From NCBI GenBank assembly GCA_004322265.1, contig SCSZ01000031.1, forward strand, positions 13,148 through 77,147: DNA of 64,000 bases, written 5' to 3'. A program made the position numbers and the translations under genes. Origin of the DNA: Patescibacteria group bacterium. GTDB lineage: Bacteria > Patescibacteriota > Saccharimonadia > Saccharimonadales > Saccharimonadaceae. The notes beneath the pieces were generated by a model. That model worked only from the letters and a program-made list of their open reading frames with translations. It searched no databases and was not told the DNA's origin. Positions 9,144-45,726 of this stretch are shown here, one piece after another (the stretch's first letter is position 1; every line of letters starts with the position of its first letter).

Positions 9144-9166
9144 GTCGCACGAATGCGACAGTTTTT
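9144..9166. terminator. Bidirectional intrinsic terminator
   Basis: GTCGCA-cgaa-TGCGAC hairpin flanked by an A-run upstream and AGTTTTT downstream. Sits between the convergent ORFan 4 and the minus-strand tRNA. Confidence 0.75.
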
Positions 9167-9241
9167 GGTGGGGCTGGATGGAATCGAACCATCTACCAAG
9201 TGGTTATGAGCCGCCTGCTCTAACCGATGAGCTACAGCCCC
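9166..9241 (-). tRNA. tRNA with CAT anticodon (elongator Met or Ile2/lysidine type)
   Basis: Reverse complement is GGGGCTGTAGCTCATCGGTTAGAGCAGGCGGCTCATAACCACTTGGTAGATGGTTCGATTCCATCCAGCCCCACCA. Perfect 7-bp acceptor stem, D arm GCTC/GAGC, T arm GATGG-TTCGATT-CCATC, loop CTCATAA, encoded CCA. GCTATAAT promoter 9 nt upstream. Confidence 0.85.
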
Positions 9242-9895: not shown

Positions 9896-9973
9896 CGCGG
9901 GGTGGAGCAGTCTGGTCAGCTCGGATGGCTCATAACCATCAGGTCGCAGGTTCGAATCCTGCCCCCGCAACCA
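9896..9973 (+). tRNA. Initiator tRNA-fMet (CAT)
   Basis: CGCGGGGTGGAGCAGTCTGGTCAGCTCGGATGGCTCATAACCATCAGGTCGCAGGTTCGAATCCTGCCCCCGCAACCA. Has the C1:A72 mismatch and near-identity of the acceptor and T arms to the E. coli initiator tRNA as I recall it. Confidence 0.9.
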
Positions 9974-19377: not shown

Positions 19378-19454
19378 TGGTAGTAGCGACAGGGATCGAA
19401 CCTGTGACCTTAGGCTTATGAGTCCTACGCTCTAACCAACTGAGCTACGCTACC
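19378..19454 (-). tRNA. tRNA with CAT anticodon (elongator Met or Ile2/lysidine type)
   Basis: Reverse complement is GGTAGCGTAGCTCAGTTGGTTAGAGCGTAGGACTCATAAGCCTAAGGTCACAGGTTCGATCCCTGTCGCTACTACCA. Full cloverleaf, loop CTCATAA. Confidence 0.85.
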
Positions 19455-29668: not shown

Positions 29669-29695
29669 TTGGCACTCATTGACATTGAGTGCCAA
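29669..29695. promoter_or_regulatory. CIRCE operator (hrcA-grpE)
   Basis: TTGGCACTC-N9-GAGTGCCAA, a perfect inverted repeat. The spacer contains the -35 TTGACA (29679-29684). TACAAT at 29703-29708, with the ATG 6 nt later. Confidence 0.85.
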
Positions 29696-31538: not shown

Positions 31539-31565
31539 TTGGCACTCTTGACATGAGAGTGCCAA
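31539..31565. promoter_or_regulatory. CIRCE operator (dnaK)
   Basis: TTGGCACTC-N9-GAGTGCCAA, perfect. The spacer contains TTGACA (31548-31553). TATAAT at 31572-31577. Confidence 0.85.
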
Positions 31566-31663
31566 CTTATGTATAATGAGAATACTTGGCAATCTAAGAT
31601 GTAGAGTGCTAAGATTGTAATTAGAAGATGCATACTTAGATTAATAAAATAGGAGATATAAAT

Positions 31664-34973: not shown

Positions 34974-36033
34974 TACGACGAACAGCTAGGTGCGGTAACG
35001 TAAATAGCGCCAAGAGTACACCAGCAAGATAGAGCAGTGTATACACGATCAGAAAAATCGGCGCTAGCAGTGTAAGGTTTAGTCTGTCTACGAATGAATA
35101 GTCAGCTTGCTTTGAGAGCATTCCAATATAAATAAGAAGATATGCGACAATGATCGACGCGGCTAGTACGAGTATCTCTTGAGGCGCTGCAGCTACAAAA
35201 ACATACCCGAGACCAGCAAAAATAAGCACTGTTAGAGTAAGTCCAACACTGCGTCGAAACAGACTGGCATATGATACAGCCTGTCGCCGAAAAATCTTCT
35301 TTATTGATGGAGCCTCGGCAATTGAAACACCAGAGCTGTAAATAATTGCACCAGAACTACGCGTCGATAAGAGCGACGAACGCTTGTAGACGATACCGCT
35401 AGAAAGCGCTTGTGATACCGTTGGTTTTTTACGTTTTAGGATCATTTGACGCCACATCATTATCTGCGCTTCGAATGCGCTACGGATAGTTTTATTCAAA
35501 ATAATGCGACGACCCAGGATTATTCTATCTGGCATTTCAGGCGAGTAATCGAGTGCAATAGTATCAAAAAATTGTTTTGAAATATGCTGTTCTGGCGTAA
35601 GTATGGTAACGAGTGTCGCGCGACTATACTTCTTTATTAGATCAACTACTGTCATTTTGGCACGCATCGTGACGACATGGAAATTTTTTATCTTGTGGCT
35701 AGTCTTGTACTGTCGCAAAACGGATGCAGCGTTTTTGCCGGCGGTGTGGTGAACCAGTATGAGTACTTCTTGCTGTGAGTAGCCCTGGACGTATATCTCG
35801 TCCAAAAGAGGCACGATCGTATCAGCTTTTTTACGCAGCTCAATAACAACACCAATCATTTTTTTCGTCTTCTTTTTACCCAGTTCGCGTAGATGCTGAT
35901 TTAACCGTGCAGTGCTTTTGATGTCTTTAGCATCACTCACTAGTCGTAGCACAATAGCTATACCAAGTAAGCATAATGCGGCAATAATCGTAGGGGACAG
36001 TGTTATGGTAAGCTCCATACTAAACAACTCCAA
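34963..36033 (-). CDS. Membrane protein with a degenerate GT2-like glycosyltransferase fold (356 aa)
   Basis: N-terminal TM, then IGVVIELRKKADTIVPLLDEIYVQGYSQQEVLILVHH, which follows the GT2 beta-alpha pattern without the DD/DxD acidic motif. C-terminal TM bundle. Overlaps the sortase stop by 14 nt. Confidence 0.4.
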   Translation of the reverse strand: MELFSMELTITLSPTIIAALCLLGIAIVLRLVSDAKDIKSTARLNQHLRELGKKKTKKMIGVVIELRKKADTIVPLLDEIYVQGYSQQEVLILVHHTAGKNAASVLRQYKTSHKIKNFHVVTMRAKMTVVDLIKKYSRATLVTILTPEQHISKQFFDTIALDYSPEMPDRIILGRRIILNKTIRSAFEAQIMMWRQMILKRKKPTVSQALSSGIVYKRSSLLSTRSSGAIIYSSGVSIAEAPSIKKIFRRQAVSYASLFRRSVGLTLTVLIFAGLGYVFVAAAPQEILVLAASIIVAYLLIYIGMLSKQADYSFVDRLNLTLLAPIFLIVYTLLYLAGVLLALFTLPHLAVRRIRK

Positions 36034-36616
36034 TCAGGTCGAAATACATCATTCGACGCGCGTTACTCCACACACCTTCACATGTCATGACCGTTAACTG
36101 CGGTGTGTCAGAGTCTTGTTTGAGGGCATCGGTAAAGTCAGGAGCAACAATTGAATCATGGGTATATGCATAGGTAAAGACATGGCCATTACTGGTCGTA
36201 ATCACAACAGTATCCCCCGGCTGAATATCTTTCATACGTGCAATAACTTTGTCTTGGTTATGACCATAAATAAATGTGTTACCTCGATTATCGTTTGGTT
36301 GTGATGTGATGGTTGCGAAGTATACGGCGTCAGTCGACAGTGTCCATTCACCGGTTTTTGGATCGTAGGTACCATCCTTAACAGGCAAGTTGATGTGTAA
36401 ACGATCAATAACAAAACTTACTGGTTCGCCACTGATAATCTGTTGACTGAGCACCTTGGGTTTGATTGGTGCGTGATGAATAATTGGTGCAGGGGCAACC
36501 GCAAAGAGCTGTTGAATCTGCAGACTGCTCCAGCTAATTACGCCGATGACAATATACAAAGATACCACTCGTATTAGGAGAGGTATCTTTGAAAAAGTTT
36601 TTGTTATTGCACTCAT
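36020..36616 (-). CDS. Sortase family transpeptidase (198 aa)
   Basis: N-terminal TM, FIYGHN His motif, LTVMTCEG Cys motif and a downstream Arg. Confidence 0.8.
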   Translation of the reverse strand: MSAITKTFSKIPLLIRVVSLYIVIGVISWSSLQIQQLFAVAPAPIIHHAPIKPKVLSQQIISGEPVSFVIDRLHINLPVKDGTYDPKTGEWTLSTDAVYFATITSQPNDNRGNTFIYGHNQDKVIARMKDIQPGDTVVITTSNGHVFTYAYTHDSIVAPDFTDALKQDSDTPQLTVMTCEGVWSNARRMMYFDLIGVV

Positions 36617-36637: not shown

Positions 36638-37897
36638 TTATCGACGACTTAGAACTGTGCGAGCAGTGATGCTAGCAAGTCCGATTGCGGCAACAGCGAC
36701 GCCAACAATGGCGAGAACAGGAAGGGTTGTATCACCACTTGTGTAGGGCAATTTAGTGATTGGTTGATCTGTTGATGCACCAAGTACACTACCAGTATCA
36801 CAAGTTACAACCTGGTCGTATACCGTTTGGTCGTTGATGACGATAGAAATCTTTAGGCCGCTATCAGTTGTGTCGAACGTTCGTGTTACAGTTGCACCAA
36901 TACCAACGGTGATTACTTCGCCGTTAACAGTAGCGTCGCCAGCTGCAGTACCATCGTTTGTGAGTGTTACGACGGCACCCTTGTCGCTACATGCAACACC
37001 GTAGTGAATATTGGCAACTGTTTCGTTCGTGTTACAGTCTTCTGGAGTTGTAAAGTCGTGGCTCCATGTTGTTGTACCGGTTAATGTGTAGGCAGAGCTT
37101 GCAGGGAAGGCATTGACGGTAACTGAATCACCTGGTTCTACTTTGTATGTACCCGCGGTTACAATGTTGCCGTTAATCTTGTATACAACGCCAGTCTTTG
37201 TAGGGATAGTGTAGCTGCCGCTAGTGTCACAAGTTGGGTCCACGAAGGTTACATCAACTGTTGAGACTTCGGTTGTACATTCACCTTTAATTGCAAATGT
37301 GTGTGTCCAGGTAACTGTGCCTGTTAGTAGGTAGCCAGAATTAGTTGCATATGCGTTGATTGTAACTGTTTGACCATTTGTTGCAGTGTATGTACCAGCG
37401 GGTGTAGGGTTTGAGTTGCCATTAATCTTGTATACAACACCTGTCTTGGTAGGGATAGTGTAGCTGCCATCACTGTCGCAAGTTGGATCCACAAACGTAG
37501 GAGCAGTTGGCTCAACCTGAGTAACATAGTTACAGTCATTGTTGTACATTGCCTGGCCAAGCGTGGTCCAGTTAAGGCCGTTGTGGTGTCCTGGAACTGG
37601 TGGAATAATGTCTCCCCAGTCCTGATGTGCATTCTTAAGGGTTTGTGCATAGGTTTGGCTTGAGGCTAGTGGGCCTTGGTGTTCGCTATAGTGATCACCG
37701 TGGTCGTTACCGCCGTCAGCTGCACTTACGTCAACTGAGATGCTGTCATATGGGTTTGTGACAGAATCTGTTCGGTGACAAATTGTGATTTTTGGATTAT
37801 TGTCCTGATGTGCACTGACACTGTTTGTATGTGCAAAAGTCGTCAGACCAGCAAGGACAAACAACATAAAGGTTGCTATAAGAATTTTTACTCGCAT
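36638..37897 (-). CDS. Sortase-anchored surface protein with two ~80-aa tandem repeats (419 aa)
   Basis: Signal peptide, ICHRTDSVTNPY motif, repeats beginning TFVDPTCD(S/T).GSYTIPTKTGVVYKINGN, and a C-terminal LPYTSG, hydrophobic helix and RTVLSRR tail. Confidence 0.8.
   Translation of the reverse strand: MRVKILIATFMLFVLAGLTTFAHTNSVSAHQDNNPKITICHRTDSVTNPYDSISVDVSAADGGNDHGDHYSEHQGPLASSQTYAQTLKNAHQDWGDIIPPVPGHHNGLNWTTLGQAMYNNDCNYVTQVEPTAPTFVDPTCDSDGSYTIPTKTGVVYKINGNSNPTPAGTYTATNGQTVTINAYATNSGYLLTGTVTWTHTFAIKGECTTEVSTVDVTFVDPTCDTSGSYTIPTKTGVVYKINGNIVTAGTYKVEPGDSVTVNAFPASSAYTLTGTTTWSHDFTTPEDCNTNETVANIHYGVACSDKGAVVTLTNDGTAAGDATVNGEVITVGIGATVTRTFDTTDSGLKISIVINDQTVYDQVVTCDTGSVLGASTDQPITKLPYTSGDTTLPVLAIVGVAVAAIGLASITARTVLSRR
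37031..37498 (-). repeat. Intragenic tandem duplication (2 x ~240 bp)
   Basis: The DNA blocks around 37190-37260 and 37430-37500 are near-identical (gtatacaac.c..gtctt.gtagggatagtgtagctgcc...). Confidence 0.75.
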
Positions 37898-38014: not shown

Positions 38015-38041
38015 TTAGCACTCTTGCGTCTTGACTGCTAA
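38015..38041. promoter_or_regulatory. CIRCE operator (dnaJ)
   Basis: TTAGCACTC-N9-GACTGCTAA, one mismatch to consensus. -35 TTGCGT lies in the spacer, TATACT at 38047-38052, and the ATG is 8 nt later. Confidence 0.75.
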
Positions 38042-38060: not shown

Positions 38061-39152
38061 ATGAATAAACGTGATTACTATGAAGTACTTGGCATTGCCA
38101 AAGGCGCCTCTGCCGACGAAATCAAGAAAGCTTACCGCAAAGCTGCTGTTAAATATCACCCAGATAAAGAAGGCGGTGATGAGGCTAAGTTCAAGGAAGC
38201 ATCAGAAGCCTACGAAGTACTAAAAGATAGTCAAAAACGTCAACGCTACGATCAATTCGGTCACGCTGGTGTCGGTGGATCATCAAGTAGCGGATCTGGT
38301 GGAGCTGGCGGCAACCCATTTGAAGGATTTGGTGGCTTTGGTGGTCAAAATGTACAGTTTGACTTTGGTGAAGGCCTCGGTGATATTTTCGGCCAGTTCT
38401 TTGGTGGTGGCTCGAGGCGACAAGCACCACAGCGGGGTCGCGATGTTGAGGTCAGTATTCAGCTGACATTTGAGGAGGCAATCTTTGGCGTTGAAGAGAA
38501 GATTGAGCTTGATATGGACGACGAGTGTGAGCATTGTCATGGCACAACGGTCGAACCTGGTTATGAGATGAAAACTTGCCCGACCTGTAAAGGTGCAGGC
38601 CAAGTTAATCGCGTGATGAATACTATCTTTGGTCAGATTCAACAAAACGTTGTCTGTGAAACTTGTAGCGGACGCGGTAAGGTGCCAGAAAAAGTCTGTA
38701 CTGTCTGTCATGGCAAGGGTACACAGCGTCGTAAGCGCACGATCAACCTGAAAGTCCCTGCAGGTATCGACGACGGTGCGACGATTCGAGTAACTGGTAG
38801 TGGGGAAGCCATCGGTAATGGCGAGAAGGGTGATCTATATGTAAATATCCGTGTTAAGGCACACAAACACTTCACGCGTGAGGGCGATATCATTCTGTCG
38901 GAAGCTCACATTAGTATGATTGATGCCGCACTCGGTACAGAGATAGATGTCGATACAGTTGATGGCGACATTCGCATGAAAGTTCCAGCAGGTACACAAT
39001 CAGGGACTGACTTTAAACTTTCAAACCACGGCGTGCCGCACGTTAATAGCGACAAGCGTGGCCCTCATATTGTTAGTATTATTGTTGATACGCCAACTAA
39101 ATTATCTAGGAAACAAAAAGAAATCCTGGAGCAGTTTGACTCTAAGAAGTAG
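38061..39152 (+). CDS. dnaJ: Co-chaperone DnaJ
   Basis: J domain with HPDK, a Gly/Phe-rich region, and four CxxCxGxG zinc motifs ([32 protein letters not shown]). Confidence 0.95.
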
Positions 39153-39876
39153 TTAGGTCAGTTAGCTCAGCGATACGTTGGTCCAAACTATCGTGTGAGT
39201 TTCTCGTTAGAACACGTACATTGGCATTTGGTCGTGCACGGACAATTTCTGGGTCATTACCAAATATAGCAGCTGCATTGTTATCAATTGCGAATCCTCT
39301 ATTAATATCCTCAGGAAAAGTATTAAGTAAAGCTTCTAATCGACTGTCTGGTCTGAGACCGCCAGGGATAGGATCATGTTGATCAGCGTGAGCTGTTGCA
39401 ACACCGTATATAGCATCAACTCCAGGTGCTAAATATTCGTAGTCCCATTGAACTTCAGCCGGTCTAGCTGCCACATTGCTATGAGCGAGACTAAAAGGCA
39501 AAAGTGCTCCAGCGCTACTTCCGACATGGACGACTCCGTTTTCTATTGCTTTTTTAAGAAGGTTATTTGTTCCATGCTCGGTCATTTTCTGTATCATGTA
39601 AGGTGTATTGCCTCCAATCGTAAAGATGAGACTTGCACGTCCAAGTTCGTGCTGAACTCGCGTCGTAGAAGGATCTTCACCGAAGTCATGAAGTAAGTCG
39701 GCATTAATACCTAGTTCGCCAAAAAGCTTCATAGTATCACTAACTTTTCTGGTGTAAGAGCGTTCGGTTGAGGCTGCCGTTGGGATTATTAGTACTCGTG
39801 ATGGATCGCCTGCGAGCTCAAGGCCTTTTTTGATTGCTGGCTTGCGATCGCCGCCGCCAATTGCAACAATGTTCAT
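39142..39876 (-). CDS. Peptidase family S51 (dipeptidase E / cyanophycinase-like, 244 aa)
   Basis: IVAIGGG..., FTIGGNT and the nucleophile motif VGSSAGAL. Its 3' end overlaps the dnaJ stop by 11 nt (convergent). Confidence 0.75.
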
Positions 39877-39948
39877 ACTATTATATTAGCATATTTTGTA
39901 TAAAATTGCAAGTTGGTAAAGTATTGTGAGATTGGTATACTAACACAT

Positions 39949-40863
39949 ATGAAAAAAGTCCTAATCCTGAGTCGTCTTGATGACCGCGAATCCTACGATA
40001 ACAAACAAAATTACTTGAGCGCCCTAGCAGGTGTCGATACAGACTGTGAATATACCGTCGATGAATACGAAAACTTATTGTTTTGGTATGACGGCAATGC
40101 ACTAAAAGTAATGCTCGGTAATACTGACGTTGATATTGCATCATTTGACGCAGTATTTTTGATTGGGTGGTTTCAGCTACGCATGACCGAAGACATAGTG
40201 CTTAGTCTTTCAATGTATCTGGAACATAGGGGCGTAAAAGTGCTAAACAGTGAAGCACTACACACTCGCTCTAAATCAAAACTTAGTCAGTATGTTGTTG
40301 CCGCACTCAATGGTATATCTATTACGCCTTTCTTGTTTAGTATGTCGCCAGAAGTCTTGTCAGGTGCAATTAGCAATCGCTGGCAGTCTGGTTATCCAGT
40401 CATTATGAAGGGCGTGCAGGCTAGTAGGGGTAATGACAATTACCTTGTAGAGAATGAAGCTGACGCGCGCAAATATGCAAACACGATGCAAAAAAGTGTT
40501 AGCCCCTGGTTCGTAGTACAAGAGTTCATCCCGAACGAAGGTGATTATAGAATTGTCGTTATGGGCGACCAGGTAACAGCGGTAATTCATCGTCAGTCTG
40601 TTACCGAGTCTCATCTAAATAACACGTCAAAAGGTGGCAAGGCAGAACTTACTGATGATTCGATTTTGCCTCAAGATGTTATTGATCAATCAATTAAGCT
40701 AGCTAAGTTAATGCACCGTGAGATCACAGGCGTTGATATGATTCGACATACGGGAACGTCAAAATTCTATCTACTGGAAATCAATAATATGCCCCAGCTT
40801 GCAACCGGTAGCTACGTGGGCGAAAAAATCAAACGACTCGATACGTATTTCGCTAGTCTTTAA
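39949..40863 (+). CDS. RimK-type ATP-grasp ligase (304 aa)
   Basis: YPVIMKGVQASRGNDNYLV, QEFIPNEGDYRIVVMGDQVTAVIHR, NNTSKGGKAE and GVDMIRH...YLLEINNMPQL. Confidence 0.75.
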   Translation: MKKVLILSRLDDRESYDNKQNYLSALAGVDTDCEYTVDEYENLLFWYDGNALKVMLGNTDVDIASFDAVFLIGWFQLRMTEDIVLSLSMYLEHRGVKVLNSEALHTRSKSKLSQYVVAALNGISITPFLFSMSPEVLSGAISNRWQSGYPVIMKGVQASRGNDNYLVENEADARKYANTMQKSVSPWFVVQEFIPNEGDYRIVVMGDQVTAVIHRQSVTESHLNNTSKGGKAELTDDSILPQDVIDQSIKLAKLMHREITGVDMIRHTGTSKFYLLEINNMPQLATGSYVGEKIKRLDTYFASL

Positions 40864-40954
40864 GGACGGCTCCTAACAGAGGTAAGTCTGGCTAATAACT
40901 CTTTAAATTGCTATACTAAATATACAACCGCAAACTTACGTTAGGAGCTATTTT

Positions 40955-41971
40955 TTGATTGATTTAATGACGCTGGACGTCGATACTCTTAGCCAGTCGC
41001 TAAAAACTATTCGAGAAGAAATAGTTAAGCGAGGCTGGCATATTGAAGTATTCCGATCAAACAATTCACATCGTATTATTACGCGCGATGACGGCAAGCG
41101 TATGCACGTTTTTGGCTCAGTTTCACCTGCGACAAGTTATGCAGCCGCCAAAGCAAGTAACGACAAGTTGCTGACCTACGAATTACTTGAAAACGAAGAT
41201 TTACCGTTACTTGATCTTGTGACAGTAAGAGATGACAATGACCTCGAACAGGCAAAAGAGTTTATGGTCAAAAAGGGTAAAGTTGTCGTCAAGCCAGTTG
41301 ATGGCTCACATGGTCAGGGGATTACGGTCGACGTACGTGATGAGGCGTCGCTACGCAAAGCGCTAAAAGTTGCCAGGAATGTAACCAAACAAAGCAAAGA
41401 TGTTATTGTGCAGGAGCAATACGACCACGAAATCATCTGCGATCTTCGCATGCTCTACATTGACTACAAGTTTATTGGTGCAATTTGGCGTATCCCAGCC
41501 AGGGTGTATGGTGATGGCCAACACACTCTCAAACAGTTGATCGAACGAGAGAATGACACCGCCCGTCGTGGCATAGCCTATAGGGCAGAATTAACAACAA
41601 TCGATATGGATAAAGCTCACTTGTATCTAAAAGACAAAATGAATGAAGTAATTGCTGATGGTGTGGAAGTTCAGGTCGCTGGAGTGGCGAATTACGGGGC
41701 AGGCGGTGAAACAGTTGATGTTACAGATGATATCCCAGAGTGGCTGATCAAAGAAGCAGAACTGGCAGCTCGGGCCTGTGAACTGGTTGTAGCAGGTGTA
41801 GATTTTATGATCTCACAGGTTCCAACGTCGACGATGAAAAGGGAAGAATTAAGTCCCGCAATCACTGAAGTTAACAAGGCGCCATTACTGTCAATGCACG
41901 ATACGCCAACACATGGTAGGGGCAATCGTGGCGCCACGAAGGCCTTCATTGACCATCTTGCGACACTTTAA
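40955..41971 (+). CDS. ATP-grasp ligase resembling the cyanophycin synthetase G domain (338 aa)
   Basis: VVKPVDGSHGQGITVDV, IPARVYGDGQHTLKQLIERENDTARRG, GVANYGAGGETVDVTDDIPEW, VAGVDFM and ITEVNKAPLLSMHDTPTHGRGNRGATKAFIDHL are collinear with CphA ATP-grasp motifs as I recall them. TTG start (ATG at 40967 is an alternative) with TAGGAG SD. Confidence 0.65.
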   Translation: MIDLMTLDVDTLSQSLKTIREEIVKRGWHIEVFRSNNSHRIITRDDGKRMHVFGSVSPATSYAAAKASNDKLLTYELLENEDLPLLDLVTVRDDNDLEQAKEFMVKKGKVVVKPVDGSHGQGITVDVRDEASLRKALKVARNVTKQSKDVIVQEQYDHEIICDLRMLYIDYKFIGAIWRIPARVYGDGQHTLKQLIERENDTARRGIAYRAELTTIDMDKAHLYLKDKMNEVIADGVEVQVAGVANYGAGGETVDVTDDIPEWLIKEAELAARACELVVAGVDFMISQVPTSTMKREELSPAITEVNKAPLLSMHDTPTHGRGNRGATKAFIDHLATL

Positions 41972-42092
41972 AACACAAAATTCTCATCTGTTAACTCTTG
42001 ACTAAATAGGCAAAAAGTGCTAATATGCTGAAGTTACTAAATGACAACGTATTTTTGGTTGTTATTATAAGCATAAGGGCTATATTAAGAGT

Positions 42093-43412
42093 ATGTCAGA
42101 ATTTGATGAAGCAAAAAATCGCGATATGGTCCTGTTCACAGGGTCTTACCTTAGCGTACAGCGAGATGCAGTCAAGAAACTTGAAAAACTTCTTGATAAA
42201 CAAATTACTGCCTGCGTGATACTCGATATAGCTGATTCGGACAAAAAGCGACCAGCAGCAGCGGACAATAAAACTGTTGTCCTTTATGCTGATTTCTCTT
42301 CAACTCAAAAGCTTCAGCAGACTCTCGCTCCATACAAAGAGCGCTTTCTCGCTGTAACCTGTAGAGCAGAGAAAAATATCCCACTCTTTAAAAAGGTTAT
42401 TCCACACGTTCCATATATCAACACGCCATCCGAGTTATCGCTTGATTGGACTACTGACAAAGTAAAAATGCGTCAGTTACTTCGTAACTACGACAAGTCG
42501 ATTTCGCCTAAGTTTGCCGTTGTGCACGATGCTAATAAAGAAACACTTGATCGTATCGAGCGCACGGTTGGTTTTCCATTAATGATCAAGCCATCAGGAC
42601 TTGCCGCGAGTTTACTGGTAACAATTTGTTACCACCGCGAAGAATTAGAGGCAAATCTGAAGAATACCGTGCAAAAGATTAATCGGATCTACAAAGAGCG
42701 AAAGGGTCGTGGTGAGCCACAAATTCTTGTTGAGGAATTTATGGAAGGCGTTATGTATTCGATTGATGCCTACGTCAACCAGCGTGGTGTCATTTATTAC
42801 ACGCCACTCGTCCACGTTCGAACTGGACGTGCGGTTGGATACGAAGACTTCTTTGGTTACATGCGTATTACACCAGTTAACCTAAAGGCGCACAAAATTG
42901 AAGACGCCAAAAAAGCAGCAGAAAAGGCAATCGAAGCACTCGGTATGCGCAGTACAACTTGCCATATCGAACTGATGAAGACCGAAGACGGCTGGAAAGT
43001 AATCGAGCTTGGCCCACGCATTGGCGGATTCCGCCATGAAATGTATGAGTTGTCGTACGGCATCGACCATTCGCTTAACGATATCCTGATTCGTATTCCT
43101 AAAAAGCCAATTATCTCGAAGAAAGTTAAAGGTTATACATCTGTTATGCAGTTCTATGCACGTCGAAAAGGGAAGCTGAGCAGCATTGATGGTATTAACA
43201 AAGTTCGAAAACTTGAATCATTCAAGCGAATTGATGTGATCAAAAAAGTTGGGGACATGTGTGATTTCGCCCGAAATGGTGATTCGCCAGTCTTTACGAT
43301 TGTTCTTTTCAATAAAGATCGTTCACGATTACTCGCTGATATTCGACGACTCGAACAGGCGATTCGTATCAACGTTACCGTTCCAACTCGTAAGACCGTC
43401 AAGTCAGCCTAA
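42093..43412 (+). CDS. ATP-grasp ligase, L-amino-acid-ligase/ATP-grasp_4-like (439 aa)
   Basis: GFPLMIKPSGLAAS, ILVEEFMEGVMYSIDAY and CHIELMKTEDGWKVIELGPRIGG. Confidence 0.7.
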   Translation: MSEFDEAKNRDMVLFTGSYLSVQRDAVKKLEKLLDKQITACVILDIADSDKKRPAAADNKTVVLYADFSSTQKLQQTLAPYKERFLAVTCRAEKNIPLFKKVIPHVPYINTPSELSLDWTTDKVKMRQLLRNYDKSISPKFAVVHDANKETLDRIERTVGFPLMIKPSGLAASLLVTICYHREELEANLKNTVQKINRIYKERKGRGEPQILVEEFMEGVMYSIDAYVNQRGVIYYTPLVHVRTGRAVGYEDFFGYMRITPVNLKAHKIEDAKKAAEKAIEALGMRSTTCHIELMKTEDGWKVIELGPRIGGFRHEMYELSYGIDHSLNDILIRIPKKPIISKKVKGYTSVMQFYARRKGKLSSIDGINKVRKLESFKRIDVIKKVGDMCDFARNGDSPVFTIVLFNKDRSRLLADIRRLEQAIRINVTVPTRKTVKSA

Positions 43413-43446
43413 GTCTCAACTACCAGATCCTGCTATAATAATACTT

Positions 43447-43935
43447 ATGAATGTCGTATTTGTCTTCGCAGGACTTGCAGTTGTCTTATTTGTCTCAGCT
43501 TTTATCACTAGACGCCGGTTCGGATTACTCGGCCTCGCACTTGCGGCCGGATCAATACTGAGCGGTATTTGGAGTTTTGACGCAGGGCTAGTCGTCGGTA
43601 CAATCGGCGTTATACCACCTGGACCACTGACGACTTCAATTACTCTTGGTCTGATCGTACTGCTACCAGCGATTGTACTGTTATTTCATGGCTACACCTA
43701 TAAAAGCTTGCTCGGACGCATTGTTGGCGCGTTATTATTTACGTTACTGGCTCTTGCATTTCTCGTAACACCTCTTGGTTTTGGACTGCCACTTAGTGGT
43801 ATCGGCGCGAATATCTACGCTCAGCTGGTGAAGTACAAGGAAGTGATTATTAGTATCGGTTTGGTAATTGCGGTCATCGATTTGTTTTTCACAAAACCGG
43901 CTGCGCCACTATTAGACCGTAAGTCTAAACGTTGA
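43447..43935 (+). CDS. Polytopic membrane protein (162 aa)
   Basis: TGCTATAAT (43431-43439) with the ATG 7 nt later. About five hydrophobic helices. The ORF-track start at 43249 overlaps the previous gene. Confidence 0.6.
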   Translation: MNVVFVFAGLAVVLFVSAFITRRRFGLLGLALAAGSILSGIWSFDAGLVVGTIGVIPPGPLTTSITLGLIVLLPAIVLLFHGYTYKSLLGRIVGALLFTLLALAFLVTPLGFGLPLSGIGANIYAQLVKYKEVIISIGLVIAVIDLFFTKPAAPLLDRKSKR

Positions 43936-43994
43936 CGCCCACCTCTATAAGTGGTATATTTTTGAGAGCGTTTATGCGCTACCAATTTTCTATT

Positions 43995-44012
43995 GGGACC
44001 ATAGCTCAGCTG
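43995..44012 (+). pseudogene. Duplicated 5' fragment of tRNA-Lys
   Basis: GGGACCATAGCTCAGCTG is identical to the first 18 nt of the intact gene 116 bp downstream. No anticodon arm, T arm or 3' acceptor strand follows. Confidence 0.6.
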
Positions 44013-44110: not shown

Positions 44111-44187
44111 GGGACCATAGCTCAGCTGGTTAGAGCACCTGCCTTTTAAGCAGGGTGTCGTGGGTTCAAGCCCCACTGGTCCCTCCA
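44111..44187 (+). tRNA. tRNA-Lys (TTT)
   Basis: GGGACCATAGCTCAGCTGGTTAGAGCACCTGCCTTTTAAGCAGGGTGTCGTGGGTTCAAGCCCCACTGGTCCCTCCA. Anticodon stem CCTGC/GCAGG, loop CTTTTAA. TACAAT 6 nt upstream. Confidence 0.9.
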
Positions 44188-44268
44188 ATAAAAAGTACTC
44201 ACTCAATGTGGGTATTTTTTATTACAATTATTTCACAGCTGATTCTCAGTATTTGCTATACTACAGCC

Positions 44269-45726
44269 ATGAAATGGTGGGTGATTCGACGTCGACTTCA
44301 TGTGTCTTGGTTGATTAGCATTCTGTGTATGGCGATTTTAGTCGGTGTCTTTCTGTCTCGATACGTTGCACCTTCGTTTTTTGCATCAGGGATCTGGCTA
44401 GCAGCTGCTACAGCAATTGTTGTATTGACACTTTGGCGTCGTAATCTCTTCTTAATTGCGCCACTAGTTGTGGCTGGTGTCTTGGTTGGCTTGTGGCGAG
44501 GTTCAGTGCAAAGTATTGAACTACTTACCGTCAAACAATACTACGGAAAAACAATAACAGTTACTGGCAACGTCCGTGAAGATGTTGACACCGATACCTC
44601 TGGTAATCTAGTGATTCGTCTAGATACGATAAAAATTAAAAATAATATGTTAGCGGGATCATTATGGATTAGTGCAAAAACGGATACTGATATTAAACGT
44701 AGCGACCGAATTACGCTCACAGGTAAAATTAGCGAAGGCTTCGGAGGCTTTGTCGGTACAATGTACCAAGCACATCTGCAGTCGGATATTCGTCCGCAGC
44801 CTGGAGATATTGCGCTACGGGTAAGGGACTGGTTTGCTGATAGTGTTCGTCAGGCGATCCCGAGTCCACAGTCGAGCCTGGGTATTGGTTACTTAGTTGG
44901 ACAAAAGCGGGCCTTACCAGCAGATCTTGCTGAAGCATTACAAATTGCCGGCCTTACTCATGTGGTCGTGGCAAGTGGATACAACCTCACAATTCTGGTG
45001 AGGTTAGCCCGTCGGTTATTTGAGAAAGTTTCTAAGTATTTAGCAGCGCTATCGGCAAGCACCATGATCGTAGGTTTCATTGCGATAACCGGACTCAGCC
45101 CGAGTATGTCTCGAGCGGGACTTGTTGCCGGACTCAGCCTCGGGGCATGGTATTATGGCAGACGTTTTCACCCGCTCGTCTTATTATCATTCGCGGCCGC
45201 AATAACAGTCGTTATCAATCCGAGTTATATATGGGGTGATTTGGGATGGCAGCTTTCATTTGCTGCGTTTGCTGGCGTTATGATTCTGGCACCGCTACTA
45301 CAGCGATTCTTCTTTGGTCAGAAAAAGCCAGGTTTTATTCGTCAAATTTTAGGTGAGACTATATCAGCTACAGTGGCAACGGCGCCAGTTCTCGTAAGCA
45401 GCTTTGGACAGTTATCGAACGTCGCGGTTATTGCCAATCTTATGGTGCTACCACTGGTACCACTCGCGATGCTACTGACATTTATTGCAGGACTTGGAAC
45501 ACTCGTGATTCCAAGTCTTGCGACTATTATTGGTCTGCCTGCGACGTGGCTTTTAACATATATGACAGGTACTGCCCAATATCTGTCGCATGTTCCATGG
45601 GCCGTTACGTCTATAACATTGCCGAGTTGGGCGGTTGGGCTATGTTATCTTGGATTAACAAGCGTGTGTATTGTTTTGTGGCGAATCACTAAATATGATC
45701 TAAAGAATGCGAATATTATCGAATGA
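44269..45726 (+). CDS. comEC: ComEC/Rec2 DNA internalisation channel (485 aa, no beta-lactamase domain)
   Basis: N-terminal TMs plus an OB-like region, then the competence domain with GLTHVVVASGYNLTILV and many TM helices. TGCTATACT 6 nt before the ATG. The ORF-track start at 44155 overlaps tRNA-Lys. Confidence 0.8.
   Translation: MKWWVIRRRLHVSWLISILCMAILVGVFLSRYVAPSFFASGIWLAAATAIVVLTLWRRNLFLIAPLVVAGVLVGLWRGSVQSIELLTVKQYYGKTITVTGNVREDVDTDTSGNLVIRLDTIKIKNNMLAGSLWISAKTDTDIKRSDRITLTGKISEGFGGFVGTMYQAHLQSDIRPQPGDIALRVRDWFADSVRQAIPSPQSSLGIGYLVGQKRALPADLAEALQIAGLTHVVVASGYNLTILVRLARRLFEKVSKYLAALSASTMIVGFIAITGLSPSMSRAGLVAGLSLGAWYYGRRFHPLVLLSFAAAITVVINPSYIWGDLGWQLSFAAFAGVMILAPLLQRFFFGQKKPGFIRQILGETISATVATAPVLVSSFGQLSNVAVIANLMVLPLVPLAMLLTFIAGLGTLVIPSLATIIGLPATWLLTYMTGTAQYLSHVPWAVTSITLPSWAVGLCYLGLTSVCIVLWRITKYDLKNANIIE

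Follow-up and report, generated by a model that had tools for sequence, protein, structure and literature searches.

A modular ATP-grasp ligase island between dnaJ and tRNA-Lys in Saccharibacteria

Saccharibacteria live as ultrasmall epibionts, with genomes of roughly 1 Mb and next to no capacity for amino-acid biosynthesis, and a locus in one of these genomes that groups three ATP-grasp ligase genes with a gene of the S51 peptidase family raises the question of what such enzymes could be joining, and whether they work together at all. The locus lies in a 64,000-nucleotide stretch of contig SCSZ01000031.1, referred to throughout as the window. An original prediction, drawn from the letters of this stretch, described an S51 gene divergent from three ATP-grasp genes of different subfamilies, followed by a small polytopic membrane protein and lying between dnaJ and tRNA-Lys beside tRNA debris. 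Pfam and NCBIfam profiles bear this layout out: the five open reading frames (ORFs), encoding the S51 protein, the ligases A, G and L1, and the membrane protein m163, were confirmed at the coordinates below, and the tRNA debris is real. Viewed across genomes, the locus is a variant of a modular 'ATP-grasp island' that is specific to Saccharibacteria and placed between dnaJ and tRNA-Lys/comEC. Its features in the window are as follows (aa, amino acids; nt, nucleotides):

38015..38041, + strand: controlling inverted repeat of chaperone expression (CIRCE, the HrcA operator), one mismatch against the consensus, preceding dnaJ
38061..39152, + strand: dnaJ (Pfam DnaJ, DnaJ_C and DnaJ_CXXCXGXG), the conserved upstream boundary of the island
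39142..39876, - strand: atypical S51 hydrolase, 244 aa (Pfam Peptidase_S51, 65.6 bits)
39877..39948, no strand: divergent intergenic region of 72 bp, with a promoter-like TTGGTA-17-TATACT 7 nt short of the gene A ATG
39949..40863, + strand: A, RimK-family ATP-grasp ligase, 304 aa (Pfam RimK, 67.9 bits)
40955..41971, + strand: G, standalone homologue of the CphA G domain, 338 aa (TIGR02068, 186.9 bits)
42093..43412, + strand: L1, ATP-grasp of the L-amino-acid-ligase type, 439 aa (ATP-grasp_4 and LAL_C2)
43444..43935, + strand: m163, small polytopic membrane protein, 163 aa (no Pfam or NCBIfam family)
43994..44012, + strand: exact 19-nt copy of the tRNA-Lys 5' end, 116 nt upstream of tRNA-Lys(UUU)
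44111..44187, + strand: tRNA-Lys(UUU), a conserved landmark that bounds the island downstream; comEC comes next

The island across Saccharibacteria

Scanning a single genome for each species yielded 80 loci. Standalone G proteins of 309-377 aa are encoded in 73, nearly all labelled Saccharibacteria or Saccharimonadales; the other seven carry full-length CphA1 of Acidobacteriota and Chloroflexota (true CphA1 proteins in the scan measure 797-1642 aa), four of them with a neighbouring S51 gene (L077, L080, L086 and L089). Gene content was counted in 74 loci, window included, with each ORF classified against reference proteins (LAL, L-amino-acid ligase):

RimB and/or RimK: 60 of 74 loci
LAL-type ligase, any: 30 of 74 loci
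L2, about 408 aa, on the opposite strand, about 30% identical to L1: 19 of 74 loci
L1, the window type, about 439 aa: 13 of 74 loci
S51: 9 of 74 loci
A: 8 of 74 loci
B, a second RimK-like paralogue: 8 of 74 loci
U528, a 528-aa protein: 8 of 74 loci

The slot itself is conserved and reads dnaK-dnaJ, island, (DUF192)-m163-tRNA-Lys-comEC. The island is adjoined by dnaJ in 49 of the 74 loci and edged by tRNA-Lys(UUU) in eight of nine relatives checked, and m163, whose product matches no family in Pfam or NCBIfam, recurs as the last island gene, found by BLAST in the same position in 23/74 loci. The G proteins make up a single set of orthologues that cluster by host lineage, and on this clustering G is the vertically inherited, phylum-wide anchor gene of the island. 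The horizontal acquisition that had been suggested for the block is accordingly hard to sustain: recent transfer is unlikely because the order dnaJ-island-tRNA-Lys-comEC is syntenic across the phylum, G is vertically inherited, and the GC content of the locus is unremarkable, matching that of the rest of the window.

Around this anchor the gene content varies, and the expectation of a fixed four-gene module fails. S51, A, G and an L-type ligase stand together in 4/74 loci, and in the closest available relative (G 84% and L1 94% identical) the order is dnaJ-A-G-L1-m162-comEC with 12 bp between dnaJ and A, so that no S51 gene is present there. Nor is S51 the commonest partner of G, a place held by RimK and a RimB-like retropepsin. 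Within the clade of the window, G and L1 alone make up the minimal island (L001, L011, L012, L037 and L040), and in L004, L017 and L090 as many as six ligase genes from one superfamily share this locus. L2 is accompanied by RimB/RimK in 19/19 loci; L1, by comparison, is anticorrelated with them (4/13 loci with L1 against 56/61 without, p about 1e-5, not corrected for phylogeny). No RimB or RimK homologue was found in the 64 kb window, the closest relatives likewise lack both, and this version of the island is not a RimABK system. Elsewhere the RimK is bona fide: that of L004 scores 343 against the equivalog cut-off of 331 of PRK10446 (S6-glutamate ligase) and 265 against 143.4 for TIGR00768.

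The predicted recurrence of a ligase and peptidase neighbourhood in a reduced Saccharibacteria genome is nevertheless borne out. The S51 gene is accompanied by an L-type ligase in 9/9 genome loci (Fisher p = 1.3e-4, likewise uncorrected), as well as in L090-L093, and its subfamily was found only inside the island in every context examined, down to 43% identity; the island accordingly counts the peptidase among its parts, as an optional one, and the subfamily appears restricted to the island. The B and G genes overlap, which suggests translational coupling, and a GNAT gene, for a possible capping enzyme, adjoins G in some loci. U528 lies directly beside G in eight Saccharibacteria loci (e.g., L005:8103-9689; also L025, L051, L076, L079, L081, L083, L088 and similar), in the slot held elsewhere by LAL-type ligases and with an adjacent GNAT gene in three loci (L051, L085 and L088); it shows no similarity to Pfam or Protein Data Bank (PDB) entries.

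The relation of the island to the heat-shock genes is equally variable. The window holds four CIRCE sites, against 0.03 expected by chance, which precede hrcA (one), dnaK (two) and dnaJ (one) at 29669-29695, 31539-31565, 31586-31612 and 38015-38041; the last of these belongs to the heat-shock unit next to the island, and no CIRCE precedes the ATP-grasp genes of the window. In relatives, the gene after dnaJ is mostly an island gene of the same orientation, and in 5/18 dnaJ-G pairs the gap measures -7 to 6 nt, so that in part of the phylum the island is probably read through from the heat-shock unit. This arrangement is interrupted in the window by the antisense S51 gene, which converges on dnaJ with an 11-nt overlap and diverges from gene A.

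The ligases and the S51 protein

Judged by their catalytic motifs, which are kept, A, G and L1 are intact carboxylate-amine ligases. The collinearity of G with the cyanophycin synthetase G domain, anticipated by the original prediction, holds for sequence and fold alike. G scores 186.9 bits against TIGR02068 (cyanophycin synthetase) over model positions 156-470, below the cut-off of 850; its family profile matches TeCphA1 residues 159-479 with 197 bits, against 159 bits for GshF; and its AF2 model (pLDDT 90.6) has CphA1 G domains as best Foldseek matches, at TM 0.80-0.82, with GshF and CphA2 ranking behind. Among protein models, the scores run from CphA1 (187 bits) through the NAGGN synthetase Ngg (143.5) to GshF (134; PRK02471, cut-off 425). 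These nearest relatives all extend peptide C-termini, and G is predicted to join an amino acid to the C-terminus of a peptide at the expense of ATP, in chemistry of the CphA-G/GshF type.

The substrate that G would accept is another matter. Residue roles were taken from the TeCphA1 substrate complex (PMC9427784) and mapped on 81 Saccharibacteria G proteins and seven true CphA1 controls. The residues for ATP, Mg and acyl-phosphate (K220, K261, H267, R309, D431, E450 and N452 in TeCphA1 numbering; K71, K113, H119, R165, D283, E305 and N307 in the window G) are invariant in 81/81 G proteins and kept in CphA1. The substrate clamps, which are essential in CphA1 by mutagenesis, are Glu215', which grips the cyanophycin primer at its Arg side chain, and Arg458, which binds the alpha-carboxylate of the incoming Asp (PMC9427784); each is present in 7/7 CphA1 and 0/81 G proteins, the window G having K66 and S313. 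At the Glu215 position, 40 of the 81 have His, Arg or Lys, and no pattern connects the residue there with partner type (A, B, RimK, L1 or L2), the G clusters tracking host lineage; Arg269 and Gly456 of CphA1 are likewise not conserved. G thus departs from cyanophycin synthetases in architecture, in TIGR02068 score and in substrate clamps, and the cyanophycin analogy of the original prediction falls with the clamps.

Arg323 and Asn394, which contact the Asp beta-carboxylate, are kept in CphA1 and invariant in the 81 G proteins (R179 and N246 in the window). They were considered as a sign of Asp addition by G and rejected, because the Gly-adding GshF and the GCS2-linked protein P0102 keep both, and they are therefore clade features rather than Asp markers.

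Wider relatives of G place it repeatedly beside, or in one chain with, other ligase and peptidase functions. The family comprises 2,507 representatives (50%-identity clusters) at E <= 1e-30. Among metagenomic members are large proteins that join two or three ATP-grasp domains of the G type to an acylphosphatase at the C-terminus (P0109, P0111, P0132 and P0141); the acylphosphatase could proofread acyl-phosphate intermediates, and P0109 additionally has an LPG_synthase_C-like domain. An independent link of G to RimB is provided by P0162, a 489-aa fusion of G and a RimB-like retropepsin. In L009:7001-9476, the GshF-like standalone ATP-grasp P0102 (370 aa) precedes a GCS2 glutamate-cysteine ligase and two ABC exporters, an arrangement that resembles a split cluster for glutathione-type synthesis and export, in which one ligase would make a dipeptide and a G-type ligase add the third residue. 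The same contig also carries type IX secretion system (T9SS) and Nqr genes.

Ligase A, correctly foreseen as RimK-like, exceeds the Pfam RimK PF08443 cut-off (67.9 bits against 21) but not those of TIGR00768 (91.7 against 143.4) or PRK10446 (50.8 against 331), and A proteins across loci score 83-92 bits against the 143-bit RimK subfamily cut-off. Its ATP-grasp core motifs (Lys/Glu/Arg/Asp/Glu/Asn) align to RimK structures 7qyr and 5zct; its counterpart of the RimK loop fRSNLHRGG reads hLNNTSKGG, replacing R211, H215 and R216, residues of the glutamate-binding loop of RimK (PMC10092738), by Leu, Ser and Lys, with one conservatively kept. Being 55% identical to its counterpart in L004 and 28.5% identical to true RimK, A is, as far as its sequence can tell, a divergent RimK-family ATP-grasp ligase.

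The L-amino-acid-ligase likeness proposed for L1 is likewise supported, by ATP-grasp_4 (72.8 bits, cut-off 27), by LAL_C2 (30.9 bits, cut-off 29.4) and by its best solved relative, the L-amino-acid ligase BL00235 (E = 8e-13, 51 bits); the curated LAL equivalogs lie far above it (BacD NF053745, 34.6 against 850; DdaF, 24 against 840). Characterised LALs make dipeptides. L1 is the most conserved protein of the cluster, with 71-94% identity across genomes in which the figures for G and DnaJ are 37-50% and 66-90%, and none of the best 120 among its 1,443 homologues falls below 70% identity. An alternative assignment for L1 would be an Aslfm-type D-aspartate ligase, an ATP-grasp enzyme of peptidoglycan cross-bridges; no aspartate racemase was seen in the inspected island loci.

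The S51 protein belongs to Peptidase_S51 (65.6 bits, cut-off 23.9), with GGNT from residue 88 and GSSAG from residue 119, and could be assigned neither to PepE (NF003642, 39.3 against 156) nor to cyanophycinase (TIGR02069, 31.6 against 126.6). Its model (pLDDT 96.8) has a generic S51 fold, with Foldseek TM scores of 0.74 to pseudo-CphB 7uqv, 0.72 to CphB and 0.65 to PepE. The catalytic triads of the characterised enzymes, which we take to be S120/H157/E192 in PepE and S132/H174/E201 in CphB, are modified here: Ser121 and His163 are each conserved in 61/62 family members, and the position of the triad Glu is Asn199 in the window protein (IDNNAA, against IDEDTA in cyanophycinase) and Asn in 51/62, Glu in 5/62 and Asp in 5/62 members of the family. 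The window protein thus lacks the full Ser-His-Glu triad. Characterised S51 enzymes cut dipeptides or cyanophycin.

Readings of the island

The reading that we tentatively favour is that the island ligases assemble a short linear, probably acidic, peptide from free amino acids, with the S51 protein as an optional hydrolase. It is preferred because the LAL, GshF/CphA-G, RimK-family and S51 types, where characterised, handle free amino acids or small peptides. Each ligase would activate a C-terminal alpha-carboxylate as acyl-phosphate and then add an amino acid: L1, with its LAL architecture, may make the starting dipeptide; G, of the CphA-G/GshF type, would lengthen the peptide C-terminus by one or more residues; and A, of the RimK family, would add further residues. 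The small membrane protein may handle the product, and the S51 protein, with its modified Ser-His-Asn triad, could trim or recycle at the dipeptide or oligopeptide level. Elsewhere, the position of G beside a genuine RimK and a RimB-like protease in most Saccharibacteria points to related, poly-alpha-glutamate-type chemistry. Of the original prediction, an ATP-grasp-only peptide route with a dedicated hydrolase, the route survives as the most economical reading, and the hydrolase has become optional, given its presence in 9/74 loci.

Several observations weigh against this reading. None of the four proteins (S51, A, G and L1) reaches a curated equivalog cut-off, so that no specificity can be assigned; gene sets are variable enough for the enzymes to belong to more than one pathway; the co-occurrence p-values are not corrected for phylogeny; and the residue at the Glu215 position of G is variable and does not follow partner type. 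The strong conservation of L1 relative to A, G and S51 could mean an independent housekeeping role. Furthermore, the dominant partners of G, RimK and RimB, have as their best-known substrate a protein, ribosomal protein S6, and not a free peptide.

This last point leads to the main rival, a protein-tail writer/eraser system in which RimK-like ligases would act on a protein C-terminus, the S51 protein here and RimB elsewhere would erase, and translation or proteostasis would be tuned under stress. Several observations speak for it: G stands next to RimB/RimK in most loci, a Saccharibacteria RimK passes the S6-glutamate ligase cut-off, P0162 joins G to a RimB-like domain, the His, Arg or Lys at the Glu215 position in the 40/81 G proteins noted above would suit an acidic acceptor, and the island follows a CIRCE-controlled dnaJ, at times with almost no gap. 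The CphA1 G domain, moreover, extends a macromolecular C-terminus (PMC9427784), and Pseudomonas RimABK edits RpsF tails dynamically (PMC7343187, PMC11957791). The system is rather unlikely all the same: the window, like its closest relatives, lacks RimB and RimK and carries the L1 that is anticorrelated with both; LAL-type ligases and S51 peptidases act, by established knowledge, on free amino acids and small peptides and not on proteins, and A lies under the RimK-family cut-off with most substrate-loop residues lost. An S6 gene whose C-terminus could be inspected was found neither in the window nor in 95 loci, using as queries the E. coli and B. subtilis S6 sequences.

That the neighbours share no pathway, being held together by synteny and each serving its own function (e.g., L1 in housekeeping for a cell-wall peptide or cofactor, and S51 as a nutritional Asp-X dipeptidase), would explain why partner content around G changes freely, why L1 evolves at the rate of DnaK/DnaJ and A, G and S51 much faster, and why the 91- and 121-bp gaps leave room for possible separate promoters; a preprint also treats the Saccharimonadia S51 as a nutritional dipeptidase. 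It is made quite improbable by the confinement of the S51 subfamily to the island, by the accumulation of up to six same-superfamily ligase genes at one locus, by the B-G overlap with its suggestion of translational coupling, and by the G-RimB fusion.

A split, all-ATP-grasp analogue of cyanophycin synthetase, making an Asp/Glu-based branched or linear storage polymer with a second ATP-grasp in place of the M domain and S51 as depolymerase, is highly improbable: G is closest to CphA1 G domains in sequence and fold and has the CphA-type P-loop His, classical cphA1 adjoins S51 genes in the four loci named above, and the S51 fold is about as near to cyanophycinase as to PepE, but Glu215 and Arg458 are absent from all 81 G proteins, TIGR02068 and TIGR02069 scores fall far below their cut-offs, the S51 protein lacks the triad Glu and is missing from the nearest relative, and there is no N domain, M domain or M-like surrogate, Pfam and NCBIfam scans having found no Mur-ligase-like domain in the cluster (as predicted) and U528 having no Mur similarity either, so that the proposed takeover of the M role by the second or third ATP-grasp falls away.

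Returning to peptide assembly as the preferred reading, a broader and more doubtful proposition would embrace the whole phylum: a peptide-extension system centred on a standalone CphA-G-type ligase, with RimK/RimB or with RimK-like/LAL/S51 partners, that builds and trims an acidic hetero-oligomer by a non-ribosomal route. The oligomer would either be free, serving organisms unable to make amino acids as a store of these or of charge, or form a tail on ribosomal or other proteins, and in many lineages expression of the system would come from an extended HrcA/CIRCE-controlled dnaJ heat-shock unit.

Clusters of multiple ligases with peptidases are reportedly a known theme of the ATP-grasp neighbourhood survey of Iyer and colleagues of 2009. 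Clusters of several ATP-grasp ligases with peptidases are likewise a known theme in PMC4431377; the island is apparently a lineage-specific combination of this kind, undescribed so far. Full-text literature searches found no paper linking Saccharibacteria and RimK. A preprint of 2026 tallies, by annotation alone, genes for 'cyanophycin synthetase' and 'S51 dipeptidase E' in metagenome-assembled genomes (MAGs) of Saccharimonadia, and these are probably the same G and S51 families as here. MAG studies already annotate G as 'cyanophycin synthetase' and the S51 protein as 'peptidase E', and the residue analysis argues that it is unsafe to infer cyanophycin metabolism from such names. The wider interest is that genomes so reduced nonetheless reserve as many as six genes at a single conserved locus for peptidases and for peptide ligases that consume ATP. 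Their product, once identified, would be either a hitherto unseen small peptide or polymer or the sign of an unfamiliar way of editing ribosome or protein tails, in a lineage that is both major and uncultivated.

Neighbouring features and known systems

Regulatory signals at the cluster are few. The promoter-like TTGGTA-17-TATACT within 39913-39951 is a consensus match only, in a region not enriched against shuffles, and promoter and terminator scans of the window cluster gave no enrichment against shuffles either. Gene A has no visible Shine-Dalgarno sequence, and its transcript may be leaderless; G starts with TTG at 40955, with AGGAG 6 nt upstream. A riboswitch or leader RNA was rejected, Rfam matching the tRNA alone; a defence island was rejected, none of the five proteins having a PADLOC match; and a ribosomally synthesised and post-translationally modified peptide (RiPP) of the graspetide type was rejected, MvdC/D-type models scoring about 26-29 bits against cut-offs of 425-475, with no precursor gene.

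At the downstream edge, a DUF192 gene lies between L1 and the small membrane protein in relatives L001, L003, L011 and L012, a slot that corresponds to 43413-43443 in the window; no DUF192 gene was found anywhere in the 64 kb. Because tRNA-Lys is a conserved landmark of the island edge, the 19-nt tRNA fragment may be the scar of a local rearrangement such as loss of the DUF192 gene. The ComEC ORF (44155-45726) has a mechanical GTG start at 44155 that overlaps tRNA-Lys; the true start is probably the ATG at 44269, since the resulting 485 aa fit homologue lengths of 480-486 aa.

Upstream, the heat-shock genes of the window are divided among units that each have their own CIRCE control, and genes for a sortase and a surface protein separate dnaK from dnaJ. 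The sortase gene (36020-36616, - strand) adjoins that of a secreted 419-aa protein (36638-37897, - strand), a pair also found in L003. In the 419-aa protein a segment of about 80 aa (VDPTCD..GSYTIPTKTGVVYKINGN) is present twice as an internal repeat, and LPYTSG stands near the C-terminus, ahead of a membrane anchor; with this motif, the anchor and the neighbouring sortase, it is probably a sortase-attached surface protein. Further away, three tRNA-Met(CAT) genes lie within 10 kb (9166-9241, 9896-9973 and 19378-19454), presumably the initiator, elongator and tRNA-Ile2-type species.

Set against known systems, each component of the island resembles a characterised family and departs from it. The S51 protein shares with S51 peptidases (PepE, CphB/CphE, 7uqv and Lmo0363) the fold, the GGN motif, the G-x-S-A-G nucleophile motif and the conserved His, but has Asn where they have the triad Glu. 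L1 shares with L-amino acid ligases (BL00235, 3vot; BacD/YwfE, 3vmm) the ATP-grasp_4 core, LAL_C2 and a similar length, but is unusually conserved in the phylum and has no genes for an unusual amino-acid 'warhead' nearby. A differs from RimK in its below-cut-off score, in having no detectable Rimk_N domain and in the loss of most substrate-loop residues.

The RimABK system pairs ligase and peptidase as the island does: RimK and RimB edit poly-Glu tails on S6 and, according to the literature, also make free poly-alpha-glutamate, A belongs to the RimK family, and RimK and a RimB-like protein stand beside G in most Saccharibacteria. The RimABK eraser is a retropepsin, whereas the window peptidase is an S51 serine hydrolase.

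With the CphA1 G domain (TeCphA1, 7wac/7wae; SuCphA1, 7lg5), G shares collinearity over the whole domain, Gcore, Glid and G-omega (159-479), and the P-loop His267, in whose place GshF has Tyr or Phe. CphA1, however, comprises N, G and MurE-like M domains in about 870-930 aa, whereas G stands alone in 338 aa without N or M; the partner of the one is a Mur-like ligase, and the partners of the other are RimK/RimB, LAL-type ligases or RimK-like paralogues. The GshB-like ATP-grasp module of GshF (3ln6/3ln7) belongs to the same clade as G and has the same fold, the G-omega insertion and the Arg323/Asn394 equivalents; no gamma-glutamylcysteine ligase or GCS2 gene was found in the window or in Saccharibacteria island loci, and the island is in this respect not of the GshF type. 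The GshF module nonetheless adds the last residue to a dipeptide that a different ligase supplies; the proposed succession of L1 and then G follows that logic.

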